Positions 2,517-63,016 of a DNA stretch of 64,000 nt are shown one piece after another. The notes under the pieces are model-generated. The model was not told the DNA's origin. It did not search any database and saw only the letters and a program-made list of their open reading frames with translations. Each line of letters opens with the position of its first letter. Within the stretch, counting starts at the first letter, position 1. This DNA is from Pseudomonadota bacterium (GTDB taxonomy: Bacteria > Pseudomonadota > Gammaproteobacteria > Burkholderiales > Burkholderiaceae_E). Both the position numbers and the translations under genes were made by a program. The stretch is taken from positions 5,581-69,580 of the forward strand of contig JBEDEM010000003.1 of the NCBI GenBank assembly GCA_041175665.1. The letters are read 5' to 3'.

Positions 2517-3560
2517 TCAATGCTGAGGACCTGCCGCAAGCTGCTGGCTCAAGCTAATGAAGCTTTCGAGCTTTTGGCGAGCAGCGCCCGATCTGGCAGT
2601 GTCGCGAGCCAACGCCAAACCCTCTGCGATTGAGCCGGCAAGTCCTGCTGCATAGAGCGCTGCACCGGCATTTAAGGAAACAATCTCGAAAGCTGTGCCA
2701 GGCTTGCCTTCTATCGCTTGAAGCAACATAGCCCGAGACTGCTGCGCGTTTTCAACCCGTAAGCTTCGATGACTCATCATTGGCATACCAAAATCTTCAG
2801 GATGGATCTCATACTCGAGGATTTCGCCATGCCTTAGTTCGCCCACCATGGTGGCAGCTCCCAAGGAAATCTCGTCCATGCCGTCTTTGCCCCAAACAAC
2901 CAGCGCATGCTTTGCACCCAAATTCTTTAGTACGCGAATTTGAATGCCTACAAGGTCAGGATGAAACACGCCCATCAAGATATTGGGCGCAGCTGCAGGA
3001 TTGGTGAGTGGCCCTAAAATATTAAAGATTGTTCGCACCCCAAGCTCGCGACGGACCGGCGCTACATTTTTCATTGCGGGATGGTGATTAGGAGCAAACA
3101 TGAAGCCCAATCCGATTTCATTAATACAACGCGCAACTTGTTGCGCTTGAAGATTAATCTGTGCTCCTAAAGCCTCGAGCACGTCGGCACTTCCTGACTT
3201 GGAAGATACCCCGCGATTGCCGTGCTTCGCGACCTTCGCCCCTGCTGCGGCAACCACGAACATCGACGCTGTAGAAATGTTAAAAGTATGCGAACCGTCG
3301 CCGCCCGTACCTACAATATCGACAAAGTGCGGGCCACCATCCACCTCGACGTGATTTGCAAACTCACGCATCACTTGGGCAGCAGCGCTGATTTCGCCAA
3401 TCGTTTCCTTCTTAACCCGCAAACCCATTAATAGCGCGGCAGTGACGGCAGGCGACAACTCACCACGCATGATCATGCGCATCAGCGCAAGCATTTCGTC
3501 ATGAAAAATTTCACGATGATCAATACAACGTGTTAGTGCCTCTTGAGGTGTAATCGTCAT
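2517..3560 (-). CDS. trpD: Anthranilate phosphoribosyltransferase
   Basis: [19 protein letters not shown] and [21 protein letters not shown] motifs; 347 aa; sits between trpG and trpC. Confidence 0.93.
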
Positions 3561-5805: not shown

Positions 5806-6546
5806 CTACGCGTCGCTACCGAGTGCTGGGTTAATGCCAGCACCACCAACGCCATGCGGCGTTTTTGATCGGTAGCTTGATTGCAATGTCCATTGTGCAA
5901 AGGCGTCTATGCTTTGAACTATACCATCGCAGGGGATGTGTTCAAGCGCTACCCCCTCCCTGTAGCCGTAGGGCAGCAAAAAGACCTTCATGCCGGCAGC
6001 CCTTGCTGCTTGCGCATCATTGGCGGAATCGCCCAGCATCCAAACTGAGCTTGTCGAAACTCCCAACCTACTTGCAGCCTCCAATAGCGGCTGTGGGTGT
6101 GGCTTTTTATGAGCGAGTGCATCGCCACCTATAGCAAATTGAAAATATTGACTCAGGTTTGAGCGCTCAAGCAAGGACTCGGTAAAGCTTTGAGCTTTGT
6201 TGGTCACTACTGCCATCGGCACCTTTGCAGCGTGCAAACGCTCGAGGCCTTCGATCACACCTTCAAAGGGCTTAGCCCAGCAACCGTTATATTGTTCATA
6301 AACCGAAACAAAGCGATCCATCCCTTGGGCATATGCATCAGGCTTTGCATCGCCATCAAGATCATCGGTCAATAATCGATGTACAAAACGCTCAGCGCCT
6401 TTTCCAACAAAACTAAGCACACGCACATCGCTAAGTGGTGCCAGCGCCATCGCCTCTCGAATAGCATGACCTGATTGCACAAGGTCCTTGGCCGTATCAA
6501 GCAATGTACCGTCAAGGTCAAAAAGGAGTGCTTCAAAGCCTGCCAT
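5806..6546 (-). CDS. gph: Phosphoglycolate phosphatase (HAD superfamily)
   Basis: HAD motif I LLFDLDGTLLDT, VTNK, and GDSANDAQAARAAG motif; position between rpe and trpE is typical. ATG at 6546; TAG stop. Confidence 0.85.
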   Translation of the reverse strand: MAGFEALLFDLDGTLLDTAKDLVQSGHAIREAMALAPLSDVRVLSFVGKGAERFVHRLLTDDLDGDAKPDAYAQGMDRFVSVYEQYNGCWAKPFEGVIEGLERLHAAKVPMAVVTNKAQSFTESLLERSNLSQYFQFAIGGDALAHKKPHPQPLLEAASRLGVSTSSVWMLGDSANDAQAARAAGMKVFLLPYGYREGVALEHIPCDGIVQSIDAFAQWTLQSSYRSKTPHGVGGAGINPALGSDA

Positions 6547-6564
6547 GATCAAATAGGGAACGCT

Positions 6565-14455: not shown

Positions 14456-15049
14456 TTGTTGTCGAAGCTTGTACTGAAGGTTTTCATGCTTGCATTGTCG
14501 CTGTTGCTCTGGCTTTTGAGCTGGCACGCGAATGCCTGGGCATTTTCCTTCGCAGAGGTCGACCCTGGCGTCAGTTTGCTGTTCTTGCCCCATGGCATGC
14601 GCGTATTGCTTAGCCTTTTATTTGGCTTCTGGGGAGCAAGCGGTATCGCAATGGCAAGCTTCTTGTTTCACCGAAATCTGTGGAGCGATGACCCATGGGC
14701 GAGCATGATCACGCCGCTTATTTCTGGCTATTGCGCTTGGTTTGCGATGAAAATAAGCCTCGGTCTTGGTAACCACTCCGGTGATCGGCGACTTGAAAAG
14801 CTCGACAGCCGCAGCCTGATTGGGCTTATTTGCTTGTCGGCGTTGATTAACTCGCTCGGACACGTGCTTATTTTGTCGACGCTTGGGACGCAAGCTGCAG
14901 AAGCACATGGCCATGTTAACTTGAGCAGTACCTTCGCTGCGATGTTTACGGGCGACTTGCTCGGTGCGCTCATCATGCTTTACGCACTGAGAATGATCAT
15001 CATGGTTTTTGGTTCGAAGACAAAGCGAGGCCCCAGTGATGGACCCTAA
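14456..15049 (+). CDS. Polytopic membrane protein, paralog 1 (uncharacterised; MASE1-like signature?)
   Basis: About 5-6 hydrophobic helices. Motifs GVSLLFLPHGMRVLLSLLFG and FTGDLLGALIMLYAL are shared with the next gene. TTG start at 14456 or ATG at 14486. Confidence 0.65.
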   Translation: MLSKLVLKVFMLALSLLLWLLSWHANAWAFSFAEVDPGVSLLFLPHGMRVLLSLLFGFWGASGIAMASFLFHRNLWSDDPWASMITPLISGYCAWFAMKISLGLGNHSGDRRLEKLDSRSLIGLICLSALINSLGHVLILSTLGTQAAEAHGHVNLSSTFAAMFTGDLLGALIMLYALRMIIMVFGSKTKRGPSDGP

Positions 15050-15710
15050 GCTGACAGATCTAGAAAACACGACAAATAGATCAGGGATACTTCAGGCTTC
15101 AGCCAGGTCCGGACTTTGCTTTGCCATCTGGATGACTGCTTCCATTGCGCATGAATGGTTCTTGGGGTTTTTGCATTATCGAGACGGTGTCGACCTGCTC
15201 TATCTACCGCACAGCCTGCGCATCGCGCTGGTGCTCGCCTTCGGACTAAGCGGTGCACTGGGCATGTGTTTAGCAACTGCAACACTGATTCTGCTTGCGA
15301 TGGCCCCCGATTTCACTAGCCCAGACGCTAACTTACTTAGCCTCATGGTGACTGCAGCCCAAGTTTTCATCGACAAGCCCTCAACTTTCGCAAGCCTCAT
15401 CCTCCAAGCACTCGCTTCAGGATGTTGTGGTTGGTTGGCACTGCGAATACTCGTGCCAGGCAGGCAAGCTACTTATGCGGGCATGCTGATGAACTTAGAC
15501 TTGAGAACCATCCTATCGGTTGTGACAATCGCCTCTGTCATTAATTCGGGTGTACACGTCGGGGCATGGTTGTTACTCGATGCTGATCTCGGCGACGCGA
15601 GCGCCCGTTTTTCGGTCATGTTAACGGGCGATGTGCTCGGTGGCGTGATGGGCTTGGTACTAATCACCCTTAGCACTAGGTTATTTGCGCGGGAAGGCAA
15701 AATGACTTAG
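15039..15710 (+). CDS. Polytopic membrane protein, paralog 2 (uncharacterised)
   Basis: Collinear motifs with paralog 1: GVDLLYLPHSLRIALVLAFG, ASGCCGWLALRI, LDLRTILSVVTIASVINSGVH, LTGDVLGGVMGLVLITL. The ATG at 15039 overlaps the upstream stop by 11 nt. TAG stop. Confidence 0.65.
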   Translation: MDPKLTDLENTTNRSGILQASARSGLCFAIWMTASIAHEWFLGFLHYRDGVDLLYLPHSLRIALVLAFGLSGALGMCLATATLILLAMAPDFTSPDANLLSLMVTAAQVFIDKPSTFASLILQALASGCCGWLALRILVPGRQATYAGMLMNLDLRTILSVVTIASVINSGVHVGAWLLLDADLGDASARFSVMLTGDVLGGVMGLVLITLSTRLFAREGKMT

Positions 15711-19979: not shown

Positions 19980-21317
19980 ATGCAAGCAAGCCAAAAACAA
20001 CGTATGAATGCACACACGCTCAACAACGCCGCAAGCGCGCTCGGCCCTGAAGCCAACCTGAACCCAGCACAGGTGTCTAGCCCATCCCTACCGTTGCAGG
20101 GGATCACAGTCATCGAGCTTGGACATAGTGTTGCCGCCCCTTTTGCAGCCCAAACACTCAGTGACCTTGGCGCCGAAGTCTGGAAGATCGAAAAGCCAGA
20201 AGGCGATGACGCAAGGCGTTGGGCTCCGCCTTATTTGGCTGAAGCGTCGGCAGTGTTCCAATGTTTGAATCGTAACAAGCGATCGGTAAGCTGTAATTTG
20301 CGTGATCCTTCAAGCTTGCAAGCACTCAAGCTTTTCATCCAGGATCGGGTTGATGTTGTCTTGCAAAACTTAAGGCCAGGGCAGGTCCAGGTACTGGGTC
20401 TTGACGCTGAAAATCTTCGGGCAGGCAAACCCTCGCTGATTTACTGCAACATCGGCGCCTTTGGCGAGCTTGGGCCGATGGCAAAACGCCCAGGCTACGA
20501 TCCTTTGATGCAGGCTTTCAGCGGCATCATGAGCGTCACAGGTGAGGAAGGTCGACCGCCTGTGCGGGTTGGCCCGTCCATTATCGATATGGGAACAGGC
20601 AGCTGGGCTGTGATCGGCATTCTCGCCGCACTGCTCGAGCGCAAACAAAGCGGCAAAGGTACTGTGGTTGATGTGTCACTTTTTGAGACAGCCGCATCGT
20701 TGATGACCATTCCCGCTGCCCAGTATCAGGGTTCGGGAGAGGTGCCTACAAGACAAGGATCAGGCTCGAAAGGTATCGTACCTTATCGCGCTTATTTATG
20801 TAGCGATCAGCAGTACCTGGTGATTTCTGCTGGCAGCGATGGATTGTTCAAACGATTAGCGTCCGTACTTGGAGAGCCCCAATGGGCGGAGGATCCTCGC
20901 TTTAGCTCCAATCCTCAACGTGTCATCCATGAAGCACTCATTTACAGCCTGATCGAAGCGCGTATGCTTCAGCGCAGCAGCAGCCAATGGCAACAATTAC
21001 TTGACGAGGCAGGCATTCCTTGCGCACCCGTACAAAATACAGAACAATTACTTGATCACCCACAGATGGCAGCGATGGGACTGCTTCAGTCGATACCTGA
21101 CGCAAACTATCAAACCATTGGGCTACCACTTAGGCTTAATGGTGAACGACCCAAGAGCCGATCGCCCGCACCGGCGCTGGGTGAAGCAAACGCCCAATGG
21201 CAGCGCATGACTGACAGTATCCTTAGGGCAGGCCAGCATACCTCCGAGGCTTTGACTGAGCCCAGCCAATTCAACATCGCGGACTATGCAAGTAATCATC
21301 GAAAGACAACACCATGA
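19980..21317 (+). CDS. CaiB/BaiF family (class III) CoA-transferase
   Basis: LQGITVIELGHSVAAPFAAQTLSDLGAEVWKIEKPEGDDAR and GYDPLMQAFSGIMSVTG motifs. ATG at 19980; an ORF-track TTG start lies at 19953. Confidence 0.85.
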   Translation: MQASQKQRMNAHTLNNAASALGPEANLNPAQVSSPSLPLQGITVIELGHSVAAPFAAQTLSDLGAEVWKIEKPEGDDARRWAPPYLAEASAVFQCLNRNKRSVSCNLRDPSSLQALKLFIQDRVDVVLQNLRPGQVQVLGLDAENLRAGKPSLIYCNIGAFGELGPMAKRPGYDPLMQAFSGIMSVTGEEGRPPVRVGPSIIDMGTGSWAVIGILAALLERKQSGKGTVVDVSLFETAASLMTIPAAQYQGSGEVPTRQGSGSKGIVPYRAYLCSDQQYLVISAGSDGLFKRLASVLGEPQWAEDPRFSSNPQRVIHEALIYSLIEARMLQRSSSQWQQLLDEAGIPCAPVQNTEQLLDHPQMAAMGLLQSIPDANYQTIGLPLRLNGERPKSRSPAPALGEANAQWQRMTDSILRAGQHTSEALTEPSQFNIADYASNHRKTTP

Positions 21318-22147
21318 CGCAACACGATCAGCTTTCACACGCGAAAGACGTCTTGGCCACATCATTTGAGACACTGAGCTGTCAGCTCGCTGCGCCACAT
21401 GTGCTGTTGGTAAGCCTCAATCGCCCCGCAGTCGGTAACGCAATCAACACCCAAATGGGGCGTGATTTGTTGCGACTTTGGACGATGCTTACCGAAGACG
21501 CACAAGATATTCGTTGCATTGTTTTGGCAGGTACTGGCAATCGTATTTTTTGCGCAGGTGGTGACCTCAAAGAGCGCAACGGCATGAGCCGAGAAACCTG
21601 GCAAAAACAACACGAACTTTTTGAGCGTCAATACTGGACACTCACCGATCTTCCTATACCGGTCATTGCGGCAGTTAATGGGCACGCCTATGCCGGCGGA
21701 CTTGAAACAGTGCTCGCCTGTGATTTTGCGTACGGCTCAGAAGATGCCCGATTTGCCTTAACTGAGGTGAGTATTGGCATTATGCCCGGCGCTGGTGGCA
21801 CGCAGAATCTTCCTCGAGCGATCGGTGAGCGAAGAGCCAAAGAAGTCATTCTTACTGCGCGACCCTTCGATGCACAGCAAGCATTAGCCTGGGGGGTGCT
21901 AAATGCAGTTTTTCCAGCCGACAAGGTGATATCACAAGCCTTGCAAACAGCACAACGGATTGCCGAGAATGCGCCGCTTTCTGTAAAACAAGCAAAAAAA
22001 TCGATTCGCTATGGTATGCAAATGGAATTAAGAACGGCCTTTCGCTTTGAGGTTGAAGCTTATAACCATTTAGTCGACACCGAGGATCGACTCGAAGGTG
22101 TCGCAGCCTTTAATGAGAAGCGAAAGCCGCACTTCAAAGGGCGATAG
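21314..22147 (+). CDS. Enoyl-CoA hydratase/isomerase (crotonase) family protein
   Basis: FCAGGDLKE, AAVNGHAYAGGLETVLACDF and GIMPGAGGTQNLPR motifs. 4-nt overlap with the upstream CoA-transferase gene. Confidence 0.88.
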   Translation: MTQHDQLSHAKDVLATSFETLSCQLAAPHVLLVSLNRPAVGNAINTQMGRDLLRLWTMLTEDAQDIRCIVLAGTGNRIFCAGGDLKERNGMSRETWQKQHELFERQYWTLTDLPIPVIAAVNGHAYAGGLETVLACDFAYGSEDARFALTEVSIGIMPGAGGTQNLPRAIGERRAKEVILTARPFDAQQALAWGVLNAVFPADKVISQALQTAQRIAENAPLSVKQAKKSIRYGMQMELRTAFRFEVEAYNHLVDTEDRLEGVAAFNEKRKPHFKGR

Positions 22148-32328: not shown

Positions 32329-33639
32329 ATGCACAACAAAGATGCCATCGACGTAATCAACGACCAAGGCGTGGATTCGAATTACGCTTGGATCAGGCTT
32401 TGTATCTCGCTGCTATTAATGATCATCGGTGGCAGCGGTATGTACATGACCATTATCGTCCTGCCGGAGGTACAGCAGGAGTTTGGTGTTGCAAGAGCAG
32501 ATGCCTCCCTGCCCTACACGCTCACGATGATTGGCTTTGGCGTTGGCGGGGTGTTGATGGGAAAACTTGCTGATCGCTTTGGCGTTTGGCTTCCTATCAT
32601 GCTCGGGGGTACTTGTCTTAGCGCTGGATTTCTTCTTGGAGGCGGCGCAGCAAGCCTTTGGTACTTTAGCCTTGTCCAAGGACTCTTGGTTGGCATGCTC
32701 GGAAGCTCATCGAGCTTCGCACCCTTAATGGCCGATGCATCACTATGGTTTGTAAAACGACGTGGGATCGCAGTCGGCATTGTCGCTTCTGGCAACTACA
32801 TGGCCGGTGCGATTTGGCCTCCTTTGGTTCGACATTGGGTTGACCTTTATGGCTGGCGCGACACCATGATGGGCGTGGGCATCTTTTGCGTGATGACGAT
32901 GTTACCGCTTGCTTTGCTCCTCAGACGACGGCCACCTGGCCATGTGCTTGTCAGCAGCGTCACGAACGATCAAGCGCAGGCAGCAAGCAGTAATCCCCAA
33001 GCGTGCAACAAGCCCATACAATCCCCAGAGCATAGCTTGGGCATTTCATCGGGCGCGCTCTTGGCGCTACTTTGTCTTGCTGGCGTTGCCTGCTGCATTG
33101 CAATGGCGATGCCGCAAGTCCATATTGTTGCTTATTGTACCGATCTTGGTTTTGGAGCTGTCAAGGGCGCACAAATGCTCTCGGTGATGCTGGCGGCTGG
33201 GGTCGTTAGCCGACTGATCTTCGGACTTATCTCTGACCGAATTGGCGGACTGCGAACCTTATTGCTAGGTTCGGTGCTGCAGGGCCTCGCCTTATTACTC
33301 TTTATACCCTTTCAGGACCTGAGCTCGCTATTTCTGGTGTCAGCCTTATTTGGGCTTTTCCAGGGCGGTATCGTACCTGCCTACGCCATTATTGTTCGCG
33401 AATATTTCCCACCCCAAGTGGCGGCCACTCGGGTCGGGATTGTTATCATGTTTACGCTCGGTGGCATGGCACTAGGCGGCTGGATGTCTGGCTGGATCTT
33501 CGATGTAAGCGGTTCATACGAGGCAGCCTTCATGAATGGCATCGCTTGGAATTTCGTCAATCTGCTGATCGTTGTCGGTCTACTTTACCGACAACGTCAA
33601 ATGAAACAGCGTTTCCTCACTGCAAACCACGCTGCCTGA
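32329..33639 (+). CDS. MFS transporter
   Basis: 12 hydrophobic segments with an MFS loop 2-3 motif (GKLADRFG); 436 aa. Confidence 0.8.
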   Translation: MHNKDAIDVINDQGVDSNYAWIRLCISLLLMIIGGSGMYMTIIVLPEVQQEFGVARADASLPYTLTMIGFGVGGVLMGKLADRFGVWLPIMLGGTCLSAGFLLGGGAASLWYFSLVQGLLVGMLGSSSSFAPLMADASLWFVKRRGIAVGIVASGNYMAGAIWPPLVRHWVDLYGWRDTMMGVGIFCVMTMLPLALLLRRRPPGHVLVSSVTNDQAQAASSNPQACNKPIQSPEHSLGISSGALLALLCLAGVACCIAMAMPQVHIVAYCTDLGFGAVKGAQMLSVMLAAGVVSRLIFGLISDRIGGLRTLLLGSVLQGLALLLFIPFQDLSSLFLVSALFGLFQGGIVPAYAIIVREYFPPQVAATRVGIVIMFTLGGMALGGWMSGWIFDVSGSYEAAFMNGIAWNFVNLLIVVGLLYRQRQMKQRFLTANHAA

Positions 33640-35692
33640 GAAGCGCTTCAACGGCGGGCTCGCGACCGCGAAAAGCAACATAGGCCTGCATGGGTTCATA
33701 GCGATTGCCTGCGCTATACACATGATCGTGAAGCCGCTTGGCCAAGAGGGGATCGAAAGCATCACCCGCCTCAACAAAGGCCTCAAAGCCATCGGCATCA
33801 AGCACTTCAGCCCATAGGTAAACATAGTAGGCCGATGCATAACCTGAACCCGCAAACAAATGCAAAAAGTGAGGCAAACGGTGGCGAAGACCAATAGCAC
33901 TGGGCATCGCAATCTTTGCCATGAGTTCCTGCTCAAACAGATCGAGATCGAGACCCTCGATATGCTTTCGCTGATGCAGTTCAAGATCGGCGAGCGCACA
34001 TGAAACATATTCGACCGTTGCAAAACCTTGATTAAATGTTTTGGTTTTGAGAATTTTCTCGATCAGTTCATCGGGCATCGGCTCACCGGTTTCGACATGT
34101 AAAGCGTGACGCTTGAGCATTTCAGGTTGAAGCAACCAGTGCTCAAAAAGTTGTGAAGGAAACTCAACAAAGTCACGCAAAACGCTGGTCCCTGCCAGTT
34201 TGGGATAAGTAACCTTGGATAACAGGCCATGCAGTCCATGACCAAATTCGTGAAAGAGCGTGTGAGCGTCGTCTAAGCTAAGCAAGCAGGCCTGACCGGC
34301 GGACTGTGAAAAGTTATTGTTATTGACAACAATCGGACGCTGAGGGTGAAGCAAACTATGCTGATCACGGTAAGTACTCATCCAGGCCCCGGAGCGTTTG
34401 CTGGCTCGAGCAAAGTTATCACCAAGAAACACGCCGACGTGCTCCCCAGACTGCCCCAATACTTCCCAGGCCTTTACACTTGGATGGTAAAGTTTTAAAT
34501 CATAAATCGGTTTAAATTGCAAACCGAAGAGTCGTCCGGCTACATCAAACATCGCATCAACCATCCGGTCGAGTTGAAGATAAGGCTTAAGTTCTGATTC
34601 TTGTAAGTTATAACGCGCTTTTCGCAAACGCTCAGCCCAAAAGTGCCAGTCATGGGCCTCGATACTGAGCACTTCACCTTGCGATAAGGCTAAGGCCTCC
34701 ATCTCACGCTTTTCCTGCTCGGCGCGCAAACGAGCAGGCGCCCAGACCCGTTCGAGCAGGCCTAGCGCTGCCTGGGGCGTTTGCGCCATGCTGTCATCAA
34801 GCGCATAAGCTGAATAGCTCGAATAGCCCAAAAGACTTGCCATCTCCTGACGGCGCTTCAGGATCTCAACAATCAAGGGCCGATTGTCATGAACACCCTC
34901 ATGCTCGCCTCGCGCACACCACGCAGCCCAGAGCTTTTGCCGAAGATCACGACGCTGGCTAAAAGTCATAAAAGGCGTAACAGACGATCTTGCAAGCGTG
35001 ATGACGTGGGCATCATCACCCGGCACCTCGCGTTCGATAGCAGCCTGCCTTGCCGATGAAAGAACGAAATCGGGCAAACCCTTTAATTCGTCGTCGCTGC
35101 GTAAAACCATGGAGAAGTTTGATTCATCATGTAATACATTTTGCGAAAACTCGGTGTACAAGCTTGCAAGTTGTTCTGTGATCTCAGCAAAGCGCAGCCT
35201 TTGTGGCTCAGAAAGCTTGGCACCGCTTCGAACAAAATCAAGATGCCAGCGCTCGAGCACCCGCTTTGACTCCGGATCAAGTTCAAGTCGGTCACGATCG
35301 CGATATAAGTCATCGATCCGGGTAAAAAGTCCTTGGTCAAGCATCATTTGATTGAAATGCGCAGCCAGGCGAGGAGCCATGTCACGCTCCACAGCCTGGA
35401 GTTCATTTGAGGTATGTGAGGCCGTTAAGTTATAGAAAACATTTATCACGCGCTGAAGGCTTTCACCCGATTGCTCAAGTGCCAGCACTGTATTCTTGAA
35501 ATCAGGCTTAAGCGCTTTATCGCCAATCGCTTGCAGTTCAACGCGATGACGGGCCATAGCCGACTCAAACGCCGGCACAAAGTGCTCGGCATGAATCCGA
35601 TCAAATGGCGGCATTTCGAAACTTGCCTCCCAGTGCTGAAGCAGTGGGTTGGGCTGTTGCGACGGAGTCTTTTCTTGATGGATATGATTCAT
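33617..35692 (-). CDS. dcp: M3 family metallopeptidase (peptidyl-dipeptidase Dcp/oligopeptidase A type)
   Basis: HEFGHGLH zinc motif, FVEFPSQLFE; 691 aa. Confidence 0.88.
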   Translation of the reverse strand: MNHIHQEKTPSQQPNPLLQHWEASFEMPPFDRIHAEHFVPAFESAMARHRVELQAIGDKALKPDFKNTVLALEQSGESLQRVINVFYNLTASHTSNELQAVERDMAPRLAAHFNQMMLDQGLFTRIDDLYRDRDRLELDPESKRVLERWHLDFVRSGAKLSEPQRLRFAEITEQLASLYTEFSQNVLHDESNFSMVLRSDDELKGLPDFVLSSARQAAIEREVPGDDAHVITLARSSVTPFMTFSQRRDLRQKLWAAWCARGEHEGVHDNRPLIVEILKRRQEMASLLGYSSYSAYALDDSMAQTPQAALGLLERVWAPARLRAEQEKREMEALALSQGEVLSIEAHDWHFWAERLRKARYNLQESELKPYLQLDRMVDAMFDVAGRLFGLQFKPIYDLKLYHPSVKAWEVLGQSGEHVGVFLGDNFARASKRSGAWMSTYRDQHSLLHPQRPIVVNNNNFSQSAGQACLLSLDDAHTLFHEFGHGLHGLLSKVTYPKLAGTSVLRDFVEFPSQLFEHWLLQPEMLKRHALHVETGEPMPDELIEKILKTKTFNQGFATVEYVSCALADLELHQRKHIEGLDLDLFEQELMAKIAMPSAIGLRHRLPHFLHLFAGSGYASAYYVYLWAEVLDADGFEAFVEAGDAFDPLLAKRLHDHVYSAGNRYEPMQAYVAFRGREPAVEALLRQRGLQ

Positions 35693-54725: not shown

Positions 54726-54864
54726 CAAAACCTGCTTAACGGAGCATTCATGAAAAGATTGTACGTAGACTTTCTCGCATCGCAGCATTTCCCTACAGCG
54801 CGAAGACCGCTTCGTAAGACCGCTTCGTTTTGCTTGCGAGCATCAACAAGGTTTTGAATCATGC

Positions 54865-57031: not shown

Positions 57032-58354
57032 ATGCATTTGCTCACCCTCGGACTCAACCACCAAAGCGCGCCTCTCGCGATGCGTGAAAGGGTGGCCTTC
57101 GCCGGGGAAAGCTTAGTCAAAGCTGCTCATGATCTGAAGTCAAGGGCGGGTGAACTGCTTCGGGAGTCGGCCATCCTGTCAACCTGCAATCGCACTGAGA
57201 TTTACTGTGCAACCCCACAACCGCAAGCTGCCTCGCAGGCCCTTGAACAGTGGATTGCCTCTCACGGTGGACTAAAAGCGGGCGATATCCGAAGCCATAC
57301 CTACACGCTCCCTGGCGACCAAACCGTACGACACGCTTTTCGGGTGGCCAGTGGACTCGACTCGATGGTGCTGGGCGAAGCGCAAATCCTCGGTCAAATG
57401 AAAGACGCCGTACGAACGGCCCAAGAGGCTCGCTCCTTGGGTCCGCACTTGCATCAACTCTTCCAACGTAGCTTTGCCGTCGCTAAGGAAGTTCGAACTC
57501 AAACCGAAATTGGATCGCAATCGGTGTCGCTGGCCGCAGCCGCTGTGCGCCTCGCTGAACGAATTTTTGAGCGTCTTGAAGACACGCGTGTCTTATTTGT
57601 GGGCGCTGGCGAAATGATCGAGCTTGCGGCCACCCATTTTGCAGCGCGCCATCCCAAGGCGATGCTCGTGGCAAACCGCAGCCTTGACCGCGCACAACGG
57701 CTTGCGCGTCGCTTTGCTGCTCAAAGCATGGAACTCTCCGAGCTTTCAACCCGCCTGCATGAATTTGACATTGTGGTCAGCTGTACGGCGAGTTCGCTAC
57801 CCATCATGGGGCTTGGTATGGTCGAACGCGCGCTTAAGGCGCGACGTCATAAGCCTTTATTTATGGTCGATCTTGCCGTGCCACGCGACATCGAACCTGA
57901 AGTTTGCAGGCTACCCGACGTCTTCCTCTATACCGTCGATGATTTAGGCGAAGTCGTGCGCCAGGGCATGGCTAACCGTCGCCAGGCGGCCTCACAGGCC
58001 GAGGCAATCATCGAGGCTCGGGTTGAACATTTCATGCACTGGTTGGCAAGAAGACGTGCAGTGCCTGCGATTCAAGAACTACACGAAAAGGCCCAAGCGC
58101 TGCGTCGGCTTGAGCTTGAGCGCGCCATGCGCTTACTTGCCAGGGGCGAGGATCCAGGCCGAGTGATCGAAGGCTTATCGCTCGCCTTAACAGCGAAGTT
58201 CTTGCATGGCCCAACCCAAATGCTGCAAGACGCAGCAGGTCTTGGCACCCAGGCCCAAGACGCGCACTGGTTACCCAATCGCGCCCACGGGAAACGCCTT
58301 GACCGTTTAAGTCGCTCAAGCAAACGCTTAAATCTGCGCAACGCAGAGTCTTAG
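57032..58354 (+). CDS. hemA: Glutamyl-tRNA reductase
   Basis: [28 protein letters not shown] (catalytic Cys), [19 protein letters not shown] stop. Followed by prfA-prmC as in many proteobacteria. Confidence 0.92.
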
Positions 58355-58435
58355 CGACGCCCGACTTGAGCTGCCGCTTCTTGTCGGCAGATTGCTTCTT
58401 GACTCCCCTAAAAGCCCAGCCAGGCTACAGATCCC

Positions 58436-59468
58436 ATGAAACCCTCGATGATCCAAAAGCTTGAACAGCATGCGCAACGCCTTGAAGACGTTAACCGCCT
58501 GTTATCGAGCGATCAGCTTTTAAAAGACCCCAAGGCACTGCGTCAATACCACCGTGAGCACGCCGAACTCACTCAGTTGATGGAACATTTTCAGGCCTGG
58601 CAGCAAGCCAATGAGGATTTACTTGCCGCGCGCGAGATGATTCAAGACCCCGAACTCGGCGAATGGGCAAAAGAAGAAGAAAGCCAGGCCTCGCAGCACA
58701 TGGAGCAAGAAGTGAAGCTCCTCGAAACCTTGATGCTTCCGAAAGATCCCAACGATCATCGCAACGTGTTGCTGGAAATTCGGGCAGGCACGGGTGGTGA
58801 CGAGTCGGCTCTTTTTGCCGGCGACATGCTCAGGATGTACTTGCGCTATGCCGAGCGCAAAGGCTGGCGCAGCGAACTGCTCTCGGCGAGTGAATCCGAG
58901 CTCGGAGGCTACAAGGAGGTGGTTGTACGGCTGCGTACAGCGCATTCCTGTCACCGAGTCGCAAGGGCGTATTCATACCTCAGCTTGCACGGTTGCGGTC
59001 TTATCCGAAGGCGATGATATCGGCGATATCGTCATCGATCCGGGTGAATTACGCATCGACGTCTTTCGCGCCTCGGGTGCGGGCGGGCAGCATGTGAACA
59101 AGACCGAATCAGCGGTGCGAATCACCCATTTGCCAACCGGCATCGTTGCTGAATGCCAAGACGACCGTAGCCAACACCGAAACCGGGACAAAGCGATGCA
59201 AGTGCTCATCGCAAGGATTCGCGATCAGCGAGACCGTGAAGCCCAGGCCAAAGAGTCTGCGCATCGAAAAAGCCTGATCGGTTCGGGTGATCGATCAGAA
59301 CGTATTCGCACCTATAACTTTCCTCAAGGCCGAATCACCGACCACAGAATCAACCTCACGCTTTACCGCATCGCGCCGATGATGGATGGCGATATTGATG
59401 AATTACTCGACGCACTCGCTTCGGCCCATCAAGCTGACTTACTTGCCAGCCTTGGCGAAAGTTCATGA
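58436..59468 (+). pseudogene. prfA: Peptide chain release factor 1, disrupted (internal deletion of about 50 nt plus frame change)
   Basis: Frame A (58436-58933) encodes RF1 residues 1-166 up to [10 protein letters not shown]. Frame A+1 (58935-59468) encodes [18 protein letters not shown]...[15 protein letters not shown]...[18 protein letters not shown]. The conserved block of about 17 aa (..LKFESG.HR) between them is absent from all frames. Confidence 0.8.
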
Positions 59469-59484: not shown

Positions 59485-60399
59485 ATGTCCATGATACCTA
59501 GCCTGGCCCATGCGCTTCGCTTACAAACCGAAGCGCCGGTTAGCCGGCTTGAGCGCCTCATGTTGCTTGAGATGCTTCTTGGAAAGCCAAGAGAGTACTT
59601 GTTGGCACATGATGATGAACTGCTCAGTGAGAAGCAGTTTGACGCTTTTACGATGCTCTTAGGCTTGCGTTCGCAAGGACATCCGATGGCCTATTTGGTC
59701 GGTAAGCGAGAGTTTTTTGGCTTGAGCTTTGCGGTCAACCAAGAGGTCTTAATACCGAGGCCCGAGACCGAATGGCTAGTCCATGCGGCTATTCGCTTAT
59801 TGCCCAGGCATGGTACTGCCCTTGATCTTGGCACCGGTAGCGGCGCCATCGCCATTGCGCTTGCCCATCACCGTCCCGATGCACGCTTGATGGCTTGTGA
59901 TATCAATCCCAAAGCACTCGAACTTGCCAGTCGCAACGCGCAACATCTGCTCGGGCCTGACCAGCAAATTCGATTTCAGCGCAGCGACTGGTGGGAAGCC
60001 GTCCCCTTGGAAAGTCTGTCGCTGGTACTCAGCAATCCCCCCTATTTATCGATGGATGACCCGCATTTGAAGCTGGGTGATCTTCGTTTTGAACCACGCC
60101 TTGCCTTGAGCGACGAAGGCAACGGGCTTGGAGCGATCCAAAAAATCATCGAGGGCTTTGTGCAACGGGCTGCTATGGGCCTCATCGAAGACCCTGGCCT
60201 CTTGCTGATTGAACATGGCTATCAGCAAGCCGAGGCGATTAGGTCATTAGGCGAGCGTCAAGGCCTTTACCATGTATACAGCGCGAGCGATCTGGCGGGT
60301 CATCCGAGGGTTTGTTGCTTTGCCTTAAGACCTTCCAGGCCCGGCCTGCTCCATCAACTAAAAGACGCGTGTTTGACGTGGTCTTCAGGAACTGCCTAG
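59485..60399 (+). CDS. prmC: Release-factor glutamine N5-methyltransferase
   Basis: ALDLGTGSGAIA SAM motif and NPPY catalytic motif (LVLSNPPYL). Immediately downstream of prfA. TAG stop. Confidence 0.9.
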   Translation: MSMIPSLAHALRLQTEAPVSRLERLMLLEMLLGKPREYLLAHDDELLSEKQFDAFTMLLGLRSQGHPMAYLVGKREFFGLSFAVNQEVLIPRPETEWLVHAAIRLLPRHGTALDLGTGSGAIAIALAHHRPDARLMACDINPKALELASRNAQHLLGPDQQIRFQRSDWWEAVPLESLSLVLSNPPYLSMDDPHLKLGDLRFEPRLALSDEGNGLGAIQKIIEGFVQRAAMGLIEDPGLLLIEHGYQQAEAIRSLGERQGLYHVYSASDLAGHPRVCCFALRPSRPGLLHQLKDACLTWSSGTA

Positions 60400-60430: not shown

Positions 60431-60742
60431 ATGGAAGCCAAAGATTTCATCGCCAAAACCGTTGCAGACAATCCCTATGTCTTGTTCATGAAAGGAACAG
60501 CCCAGTTCCCTCAATGCGGATTTTCGGGGCGTGCCATTCAAATCTTAAAAACTGTCGGGGTCAAAAACCTTGTCACAGTGAATGTGCTTGAAGACGATGA
60601 CGTCAGACAGGCCGTGAAAGAATTCGCCAACTGGCCCACGATCCCACAGCTCTATATCAACGGCGAGTTTGTGGGTGGATCTGACATCATGCAGGAAATG
60701 TTTCAATCGGGTGAGTTACAAAAAATGGTCGAAGCTCAGTAG
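60431..60742 (+). CDS. grxD: Monothiol (Grx4-type) glutaredoxin
   Basis: CGFS active site (FPQCGFSGRA), WPTIPQLYINGEFVGGSDI; 103 aa; TAG stop. Confidence 0.92.
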   Translation: MEAKDFIAKTVADNPYVLFMKGTAQFPQCGFSGRAIQILKTVGVKNLVTVNVLEDDDVRQAVKEFANWPTIPQLYINGEFVGGSDIMQEMFQSGELQKMVEAQ

Positions 60743-60826
60743 CCCATAGCGTGGCCCTGAGTAGCCCATAGCGTGGCCCTGAGTAGCCCACAGGCTGCCC
60801 CTCAGTAGCCCACAGCCTGACCATCG
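60739..60826. repeat. 22-bp direct tandem array, 4 copies (2 identical, 2 diverged), spanning the grxD stop and the ggt stop
   Basis: Four units: gtagcccatagcgtggccctga (60739-60760), the same sequence at 60761-60782, gtagcccacaggctgcccctca (60783-60804), and gtagcccacagcctgaccatcg (60805-60826). The last unit is the coding 3' end of ggt. Confidence 0.9.
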
Positions 60827-62428: not shown

Positions 62429-63016
62429 ATGAGCAAACGCATCGTTGTCGCAATTTCAGGAGCCAGTGGCGCCATTTATGGACTGCGACTGCTTCAAATG
62501 CTGCATCAGCAGCAGGTGCACTGCGACCTGATTGTGTCACCCTCTGGATGGCTCACCATTGATCAAGAGCTCCCTGGCCAACGTCAGGCTATTCTTGATC
62601 TTGCCGCCGAGCATCACGCGTTCCGTAATATCGGTGCTTCAATCGCATCGGGTTCCTTCGCCCATGATGGGATGGTGATTGCGCCTTGTTCCATGAAAAC
62701 CCTGGCAGCCATTGCGCATGGCTTCGCAGACAACCTGATGACCAGGGCTGCCGACGTCACCCTCAAGGAGCGTCGCCGCCTGATCCTTTTGGCGAGAGAA
62801 ACCCCGCTACACCTCGTGCACTTGCGAAATATGGCAACGGTCACAGAAATGGGCGGGATTGTTTTTCCGCCGCTACCCGCCTTTTATCACCGGCCCGAAA
62901 GCATCGATGATCTTGTCAGCCATAGTTGTGCCCATGTGATGGAATTGCTGGGCTTAAGCCCCACTGACAGACCGCGATGGCAAGGACTAAACAATCAAGG
63001 CCAAGATTCTTCTTAG
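62429..63016 (+). CDS. ubiX: Flavin prenyltransferase UbiX
   Basis: RIVVAISGASGAIYGLRLL, APCSMKTLAAIAHG, LILLARETPL; 195 aa; TAG stop. Confidence 0.92.
   Translation: MSKRIVVAISGASGAIYGLRLLQMLHQQQVHCDLIVSPSGWLTIDQELPGQRQAILDLAAEHHAFRNIGASIASGSFAHDGMVIAPCSMKTLAAIAHGFADNLMTRAADVTLKERRRLILLARETPLHLVHLRNMATVTEMGGIVFPPLPAFYHRPESIDDLVSHSCAHVMELLGLSPTDRPRWQGLNNQGQDSS

Follow-up and report, generated by a model that had tools for sequence, protein, structure and literature searches.

A 50-nt deletion splits prfA in a sequence from an uncultured freshwater Burkholderiaceae and is probably an assembly or consensus error

The programmed frameshift of prfB, the gene for release factor 2 (RF2), is accompanied by an SD element 3 nt upstream of the shift codon. 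RF1, encoded by prfA, is essential or almost essential in cells whose RF2 is neither altered nor amplified: Salmonella tolerates deletion of prfA only after duplication or amplification of prfB or with E167K in that gene, and then grows extremely slowly, and E. coli tolerates it only if RF2 is fully active or the essential TAG stops have been recoded (PMC7530605). Natural reassignments of stop codons are known in bacteria, and all of them concern UGA, none UAG (PMC8629427). Here we analyze a prfA gene that lacks 50 nt within its coding sequence, in DNA from an uncultured freshwater-lake Burkholderiaceae species or lineage, and conclude that the hole is probably a technical product.

In the 64,000-nt stretch of DNA analyzed here (the window), prfA occupies 58436–59468 on the forward strand and is split over two frames. 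The 5′ part (58436–58933) comprises codons 1–166, starts with ATG at 58436, contains the PCRF domain and ends in a CTG codon that spans the deletion junction; its frame then continues through 27 unrelated codons (58934–59017) to a TGA at 59015–59017. The 3′ part (58935–59468), in the +1 frame, consists of 177 codons and a TGA at 59466–59468 and contains the Pfam RF-1 domain together with both RF1 motifs, PxT in the form PVT (58947–58955) and GGQ (59082–59090). The original prediction had described this layout, with a normal RF1 beginning, an unrelated tail ending at 59017 and the remaining 177 residues with PVT and GGQ in the +1 frame, and the sequence reads exactly so. One unbroken frame of ~360 aa, as expected for RF1, is not found: the coding sequence shifts frame at 58933/58935, and a stop at 59017 closes the 0-frame.

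The lesion is a deterministic difference from the relatives and not a statistical signal. Its size had been put at roughly 50 nt, and DNA alignment with relatives fixes it at exactly 50 nt, lost in one clean deletion between 58932 and 58933. In intact alleles the absent DNA, CGAGGGCGAGGCGGTATTTGCCAGGATGAAGTTCGAATCGGGCGGCCATC or a synonymous variant of it, encodes EGEAVFARMKFESGGHR, and the sequence across the site reads ...GGCT[C/T]GA[G/A]GGCGAGGCGGT...GGCCATCGCGTAC... The junction is blunt, with GGCT/GCGT in the window versus GGCT[50 nt]GCGT in relatives and zero bases common to both edges. HSP breaks give the same picture: the gap is 0 in the window and 50 in the subject for 11 of 12 conspecific loci, and in the twelfth (L091) the BLAST break falls 2 nt further on (2 versus 52), for a net loss that is still 50 nt.

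At the protein level, the fused 343 aa align along their full length with E. coli RF1 structures (phmmer against the PDB, E = 1e-115). The sole gap in this alignment is 17 residues long and corresponds to E. coli 167–183, SGDGVYGRLKFESGGHR, which agrees with the ~17 RF1 residues originally predicted to be missing; the KFESGGHR within the missing segment is common to E. coli RF1. On the NCBIfam prfA profile (TIGR00019), the N fragment covers positions 2–168 and the C fragment 187–358, leaving 169–186 absent. An artificial 343-aa fusion reaches 441 bits, with cut-offs of 423 and 400 (TIGR00019 and NF001859); the real ORF fragments reach 166 and 286 bits, each below the prfA cut-off of these models.

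The genomic neighborhood is that of RF1, hemA–prfA–prmC, and the order ilvA–hemA–prfA–prmC–grxD is the same in all relatives. Upstream on the same strand lies hemA (glutamyl-tRNA reductase, 57032–58354), whose extent follows the gene calls in relatives. Downstream, also on the forward strand, are prmC (59485–60399), encoding the methyltransferase that modifies the release-factor GGQ glutamine, and a grxD-type glutaredoxin gene (60431–60742). The prmC gene is intact and carries a rare T111 allele.

Contigs of relatives were recovered by exact-protein look-ups of the neighboring genes; they comprise MAGs and metagenome contigs, with Lake Mendota and Lake Tanganyika-type samples among the sources. 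Of the conspecific contigs, 14 extend over the site (L091–L100 and L119–L122, from 14 assemblies, 99.4–99.9% nucleotide identity to the window), and every one contains the 50 nt and an intact 360-aa RF1. The 50 nt are likewise kept in 11/11 contigs of a 94%-identical sister clade (L001–L010 and L012; RF1 359/360 aa), so that RF1 is encoded in a single reading frame in 25/25 contigs of the species and this clade that reach the site. The comparison of the locus in sister strains, which the original prediction had suggested, shows no shared deletion. In a genome scan, a full-length RF1 query was matched over 356–360 residues in the more distant species L011 and L013, and many other Burkholderiales genomes match it as well.

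The strains nearest to the window were located by exact look-up of the PrmC T111 allele (SNP 59815, A111T), which is absent from the first ten conspecifics. The allele occurs in six Logan contigs from different sequencing runs, four of which reach the deletion site, and prfA is intact in all four. Compared with the window, these four show 0–1 nt differences over 359–884 nt on the upstream side of the junction and a single one over 1835 nt on the downstream side. Other window-specific bases were noted in the vicinity. The base just 5′ of the prfA start codon, 58435, is a window-private C and is T in 13/13 covering relatives, and two synonymous hemA positions, 57244 and 57700, carry window bases absent from the first ten conspecific contigs.

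Within prfA itself, no window-private substitution was found relative to the conspecific alleles. Both fragments are 100% identical at the amino acid level to the intact RF1 of L093, L097 and L098 (residues 1–166 and 184–360), with 0 nt differences in the N part and 1–2 in the C part. Judged from sequence, prfA gives no sign of relaxed selection, and from the lack of decay in its fragments it follows that the lesion, if biological at all, happened extremely recently. The missing peptide EGEAVFARMKFESGGHR is identical across four DNA haplotypes that differ here by synonymous changes only; invariance of these 17 residues across haplotypes shows strong purifying selection on the segment.

The quality of the surrounding sequence was assessed with conspecific contigs tiled over 62,730 of the 64,000 window bases. 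Only at the prfA hole does an indel set the window apart from all of the contigs covering it (12/12); elsewhere in the 62,730 nt covered by conspecifics there is no window-specific indel, not even one of 1 nt. All other indels are polymorphisms that the window has in common with some covering contigs, and the positions checked (1699, 35729/35731 and ~60738–60800) fall in spacers; the intergenic position 1699 is covered by a single contig only. We are thus dealing with neither a generally error-prone assembly nor a decaying genome. This clean background removes sloppy assembly as a cause, yet it leaves the lesion as a singular event.

Several features met during the survey resemble gene damage or mark strain variation. 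An apparently split MASE1-like gene (14456–15049 and 15009–15710, forward strand) was rejected as a second lesion, as conspecifics show the same two-gene layout; the two ORFs are tandem paralogous small membrane proteins in different frames, and the product of 14456–15049 shows weak similarity to the N-terminal half of Pfam MASE1 (28.4 bits versus a cut-off of 29.8). A 62-nt loss that seemed to split trpD in the MAG contig L101, considered as a similar mid-gene deletion, is really a 10-N scaffold gap, located at L101:8269–8278 (GCA_032122235.1) and equivalent to window 2917–2988. The grxD–ggt spacer (~60738–60800) is variable: 22 nt of the window are missing in 6/11 conspecific contigs, and several smaller window pieces are missing in 2 others. 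Another strain-variable spacer, near window 54761–54815, has ~100–155 extra nt in L096. The window and other conspecifics have an intact gene for the 691-aa M3 peptidase (33617–35692); L105/L109 (GCA_049427585.1) have no gene call for it, although their alignment shows no indel, which may reflect a nonsense change or a missing record.

The junction was also sought in public collections. A degenerate 34-mer across it gave 0 matches among 185,579 species (one genome each) and 0 matches among 241 million JGI metagenome records. The exact 193-aa and 224-aa ORF products returned no record, a result that is uninformative alone because the window strain itself lies outside the collection: the window's 1354-aa protein has no record in that same collection either, and a 35-mer with the window-private SNP at 58435 gave 0 matches in JGI metagenome contigs. 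When the 193-aa product was compared with 5.8 billion proteins, none of the homologs retrieved had the frameshift tail; P0001, the top match at 98% identity, reads straight through the site as ...VVVRLEGEAVFARMKF.

The DNA around the deletion offers few clues to a replication mechanism. Neither a flanking direct repeat nor microhomology was found at the deletion. A 6-bp inverted repeat, TGTACG/CGTACA, brackets the site, but such repeats are commonplace (it is one of 13 pairs in 261 nt), and shuffled versions of the intact region fold equally well (z = 0.12). Replication slippage and hairpin bypass are accordingly not indicated, and both models were rejected. A different peculiarity lies inside the deleted segment: its first 25 nt (codons ~166–175) hold 6 synonymous changes between conspecific haplotypes, with alleles CTC GAG ... 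GTA ... AGG versus CTT GAA ... GTG ... CGC, against a background divergence of 0.2–0.5%. The left deletion edge is the first variable base of this patch, and the right edge coincides with no conspecific variable site. The patch, compared at L097:9503–9530 and L119:5396–5423, looks like a short recombination or gene-conversion tract. Such a synonymous patch could plausibly trigger consensus, polishing or graph errors in mixed-strain data.

An intact prfA in every close relative, including near-identical strains, makes an artefact or a one-off lesion most likely. We consider it probable that the hole was introduced by assembly, consensus building or sequence handling, or stems from a non-representative molecule, and a technical cause is the most likely origin of a lesion whose uniqueness, undecayed gene and clean surroundings are directly observed. 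Of the options offered with the original prediction, an assembly or consensus error fits best, given a single blunt lesion in a pristine gene that is absent from conspecifics and from junction and protein searches. The 50-nt hole would then be missing from the working genome of the organism and would have arisen in assembly, consensus polishing or data handling, or from one non-representative DNA molecule, at a place where co-occurring strains differ by a dense synonymous patch; the organism would be expected to possess the intact 360-aa RF1 of its relatives and to terminate normally at UAG. Against an artefact stand the otherwise clean 62,730 nt and the way de Bruijn assemblers work, which would not ordinarily yield a junction contained in no read. 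In this record, prfA is best taken as a quality flag for a probable assembly or consensus error, and the lesion is no ground yet for inferring a pseudogene or a change of code.

The alternative that survives best, though we regard it as unlikely, is that the deletion is real and fixed in a strain or clone and is covered from outside the window, by a second prfA or by RF2 compensation through prfB amplification or an E167K-like change; in that case prfA would be an ordinary pseudogene of very recent origin. The freedom of the window from other private indels points to an accurate sequence, four private SNPs near the locus indicate a distinct strain, and overproduction or mutation of RF2 can keep ΔprfA cells alive (PMC7530605). 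However, the lack of any decay in prfA would require an extremely recent event, near-identical haplotypes from four independent runs are intact, and ΔprfA laboratory strains grow so poorly that such a cell should not dominate a population or culture. As for a second gene, tblastn found no other RF1-like sequence within the 64-kb window, and a genome scan found one prfA locus and no second in each sister genome, which is weak evidence as the peptide patterns used catch close copies only. The related proposal of a decaying copy, raised at the outset, is not supported: the fragments are identical in protein to intact RF1 with 0–2 nt differences, and they occupy the canonical hemA–prfA–prmC locus, where relatives keep RF1.

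Far less probable still is a genuine loss of RF1 with no backup, in which UAG would be unassigned and met by read-through, RF2 misreading and ribosome rescue. It draws on the lesion itself and the clean surrounding assembly, and the use of TAG in the window speaks against it. At least 14 TAG-ended coding sequences had been predicted, which is about right: TAG ends 13 of 60 non-overlapping ORFs of at least 90 aa, including hemA, prmC, grxD, ubiX (62429–63016), gph (5806–6552) and an enoyl-CoA hydratase gene (21314–22147). In the 10 of these 13 that could be checked, TAG stands at the same position in relatives; that of hemA is kept in 21 relatives and that of prmC in 22. Window ORF ends at TAG coincide with the gene ends called in relatives, so that no in-frame TAG is read as sense. 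The intact prmC, the retention of RF1 by all relatives and the tRNA content of the window, in which only tRNA-Phe(GAA) and tRNA-Thr(UGU) and no tRNA-CUA or other suppressor tRNA were found, likewise count against the genuine loss that the original prediction had listed, as does the restriction of known bacterial stop reassignments to UGA (PMC8629427). The proposed biology of a bacterium living without RF1 is not supported. If true, uncompensated RF1 loss would be important for the evolution of the genetic code: no RF1-less bacterium would have been found in nature before, and this one, free-living and with about a fifth of its genes ended by TAG, would show stop-codon reassignment under way, caught at the initial step of giving UAG a new meaning.

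A programmed +1 frameshift at CUG-C-GUA, yielding one 343-aa RF1 minus 17 residues, has a negligible probability: the fused product does exceed the prfA cut-off (441 versus 423 bits) and an SD-like AAGGAGGTG (58913–58921) lies upstream of the junction, but this element is ordinary conserved GYKEVV coding sequence in all intact relatives and ends 9 nt before the CTG shift codon, versus 3 nt in prfB, the junction has no in-frame stop or slippery codon and the 0-frame continues for 27 codons, and no relative is frameshifted while the missing segment is protein-invariant across haplotypes, so that a prfB-like device is rejected for its spacing, the absent stop codon and the absent conservation.

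Set beside described systems, the lesion would be the RF1/UAG counterpart of UGA reassignment to Trp or Gly with loss of RF2; the known UGA cases combine clade-wide loss of the factor, disappearance of the codon as a stop and presence of the cognate tRNA, none of which is seen here. Like prfA in the window, prfB is a class-I release factor gene in two frames, the second being +1. It differs in having a conserved CUU-UGA-C site beside its SD element, 3 nt upstream, and in missing no coding sequence, whereas prfA here lacks 17 conserved residues, has no stop at the junction and is single-framed in relatives. Engineered RF1-deficient bacteria (E. coli RFzero, C321.ΔA and B-type ΔprfA, and Salmonella ΔprfA with prfB amplification or E167K) share with this locus an inactivated prfA beside remaining prmC and prfB-dependent termination, and they show the phenotype to be expected if the lesion were real, namely UAG read-through, stalling and rescue (PMC7530605, PMC6207430). 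Such engineered strains depend on the recoding of essential TAG stops, on suppressor tRNAs or on an altered RF2; unlike them, the window uses TAG routinely (13/60 ORFs) and contains no compensating feature. Typical sequencing-error frameshifts are of 1–2 nt, often in homopolymers, in contrast to the blunt 50 nt seen here with no other private indel. With the essential genes annotated as "frameshifted; internal stop" in draft genomes and MAGs, this prfA shares a single indel, intact sisters and an undecayed sequence.
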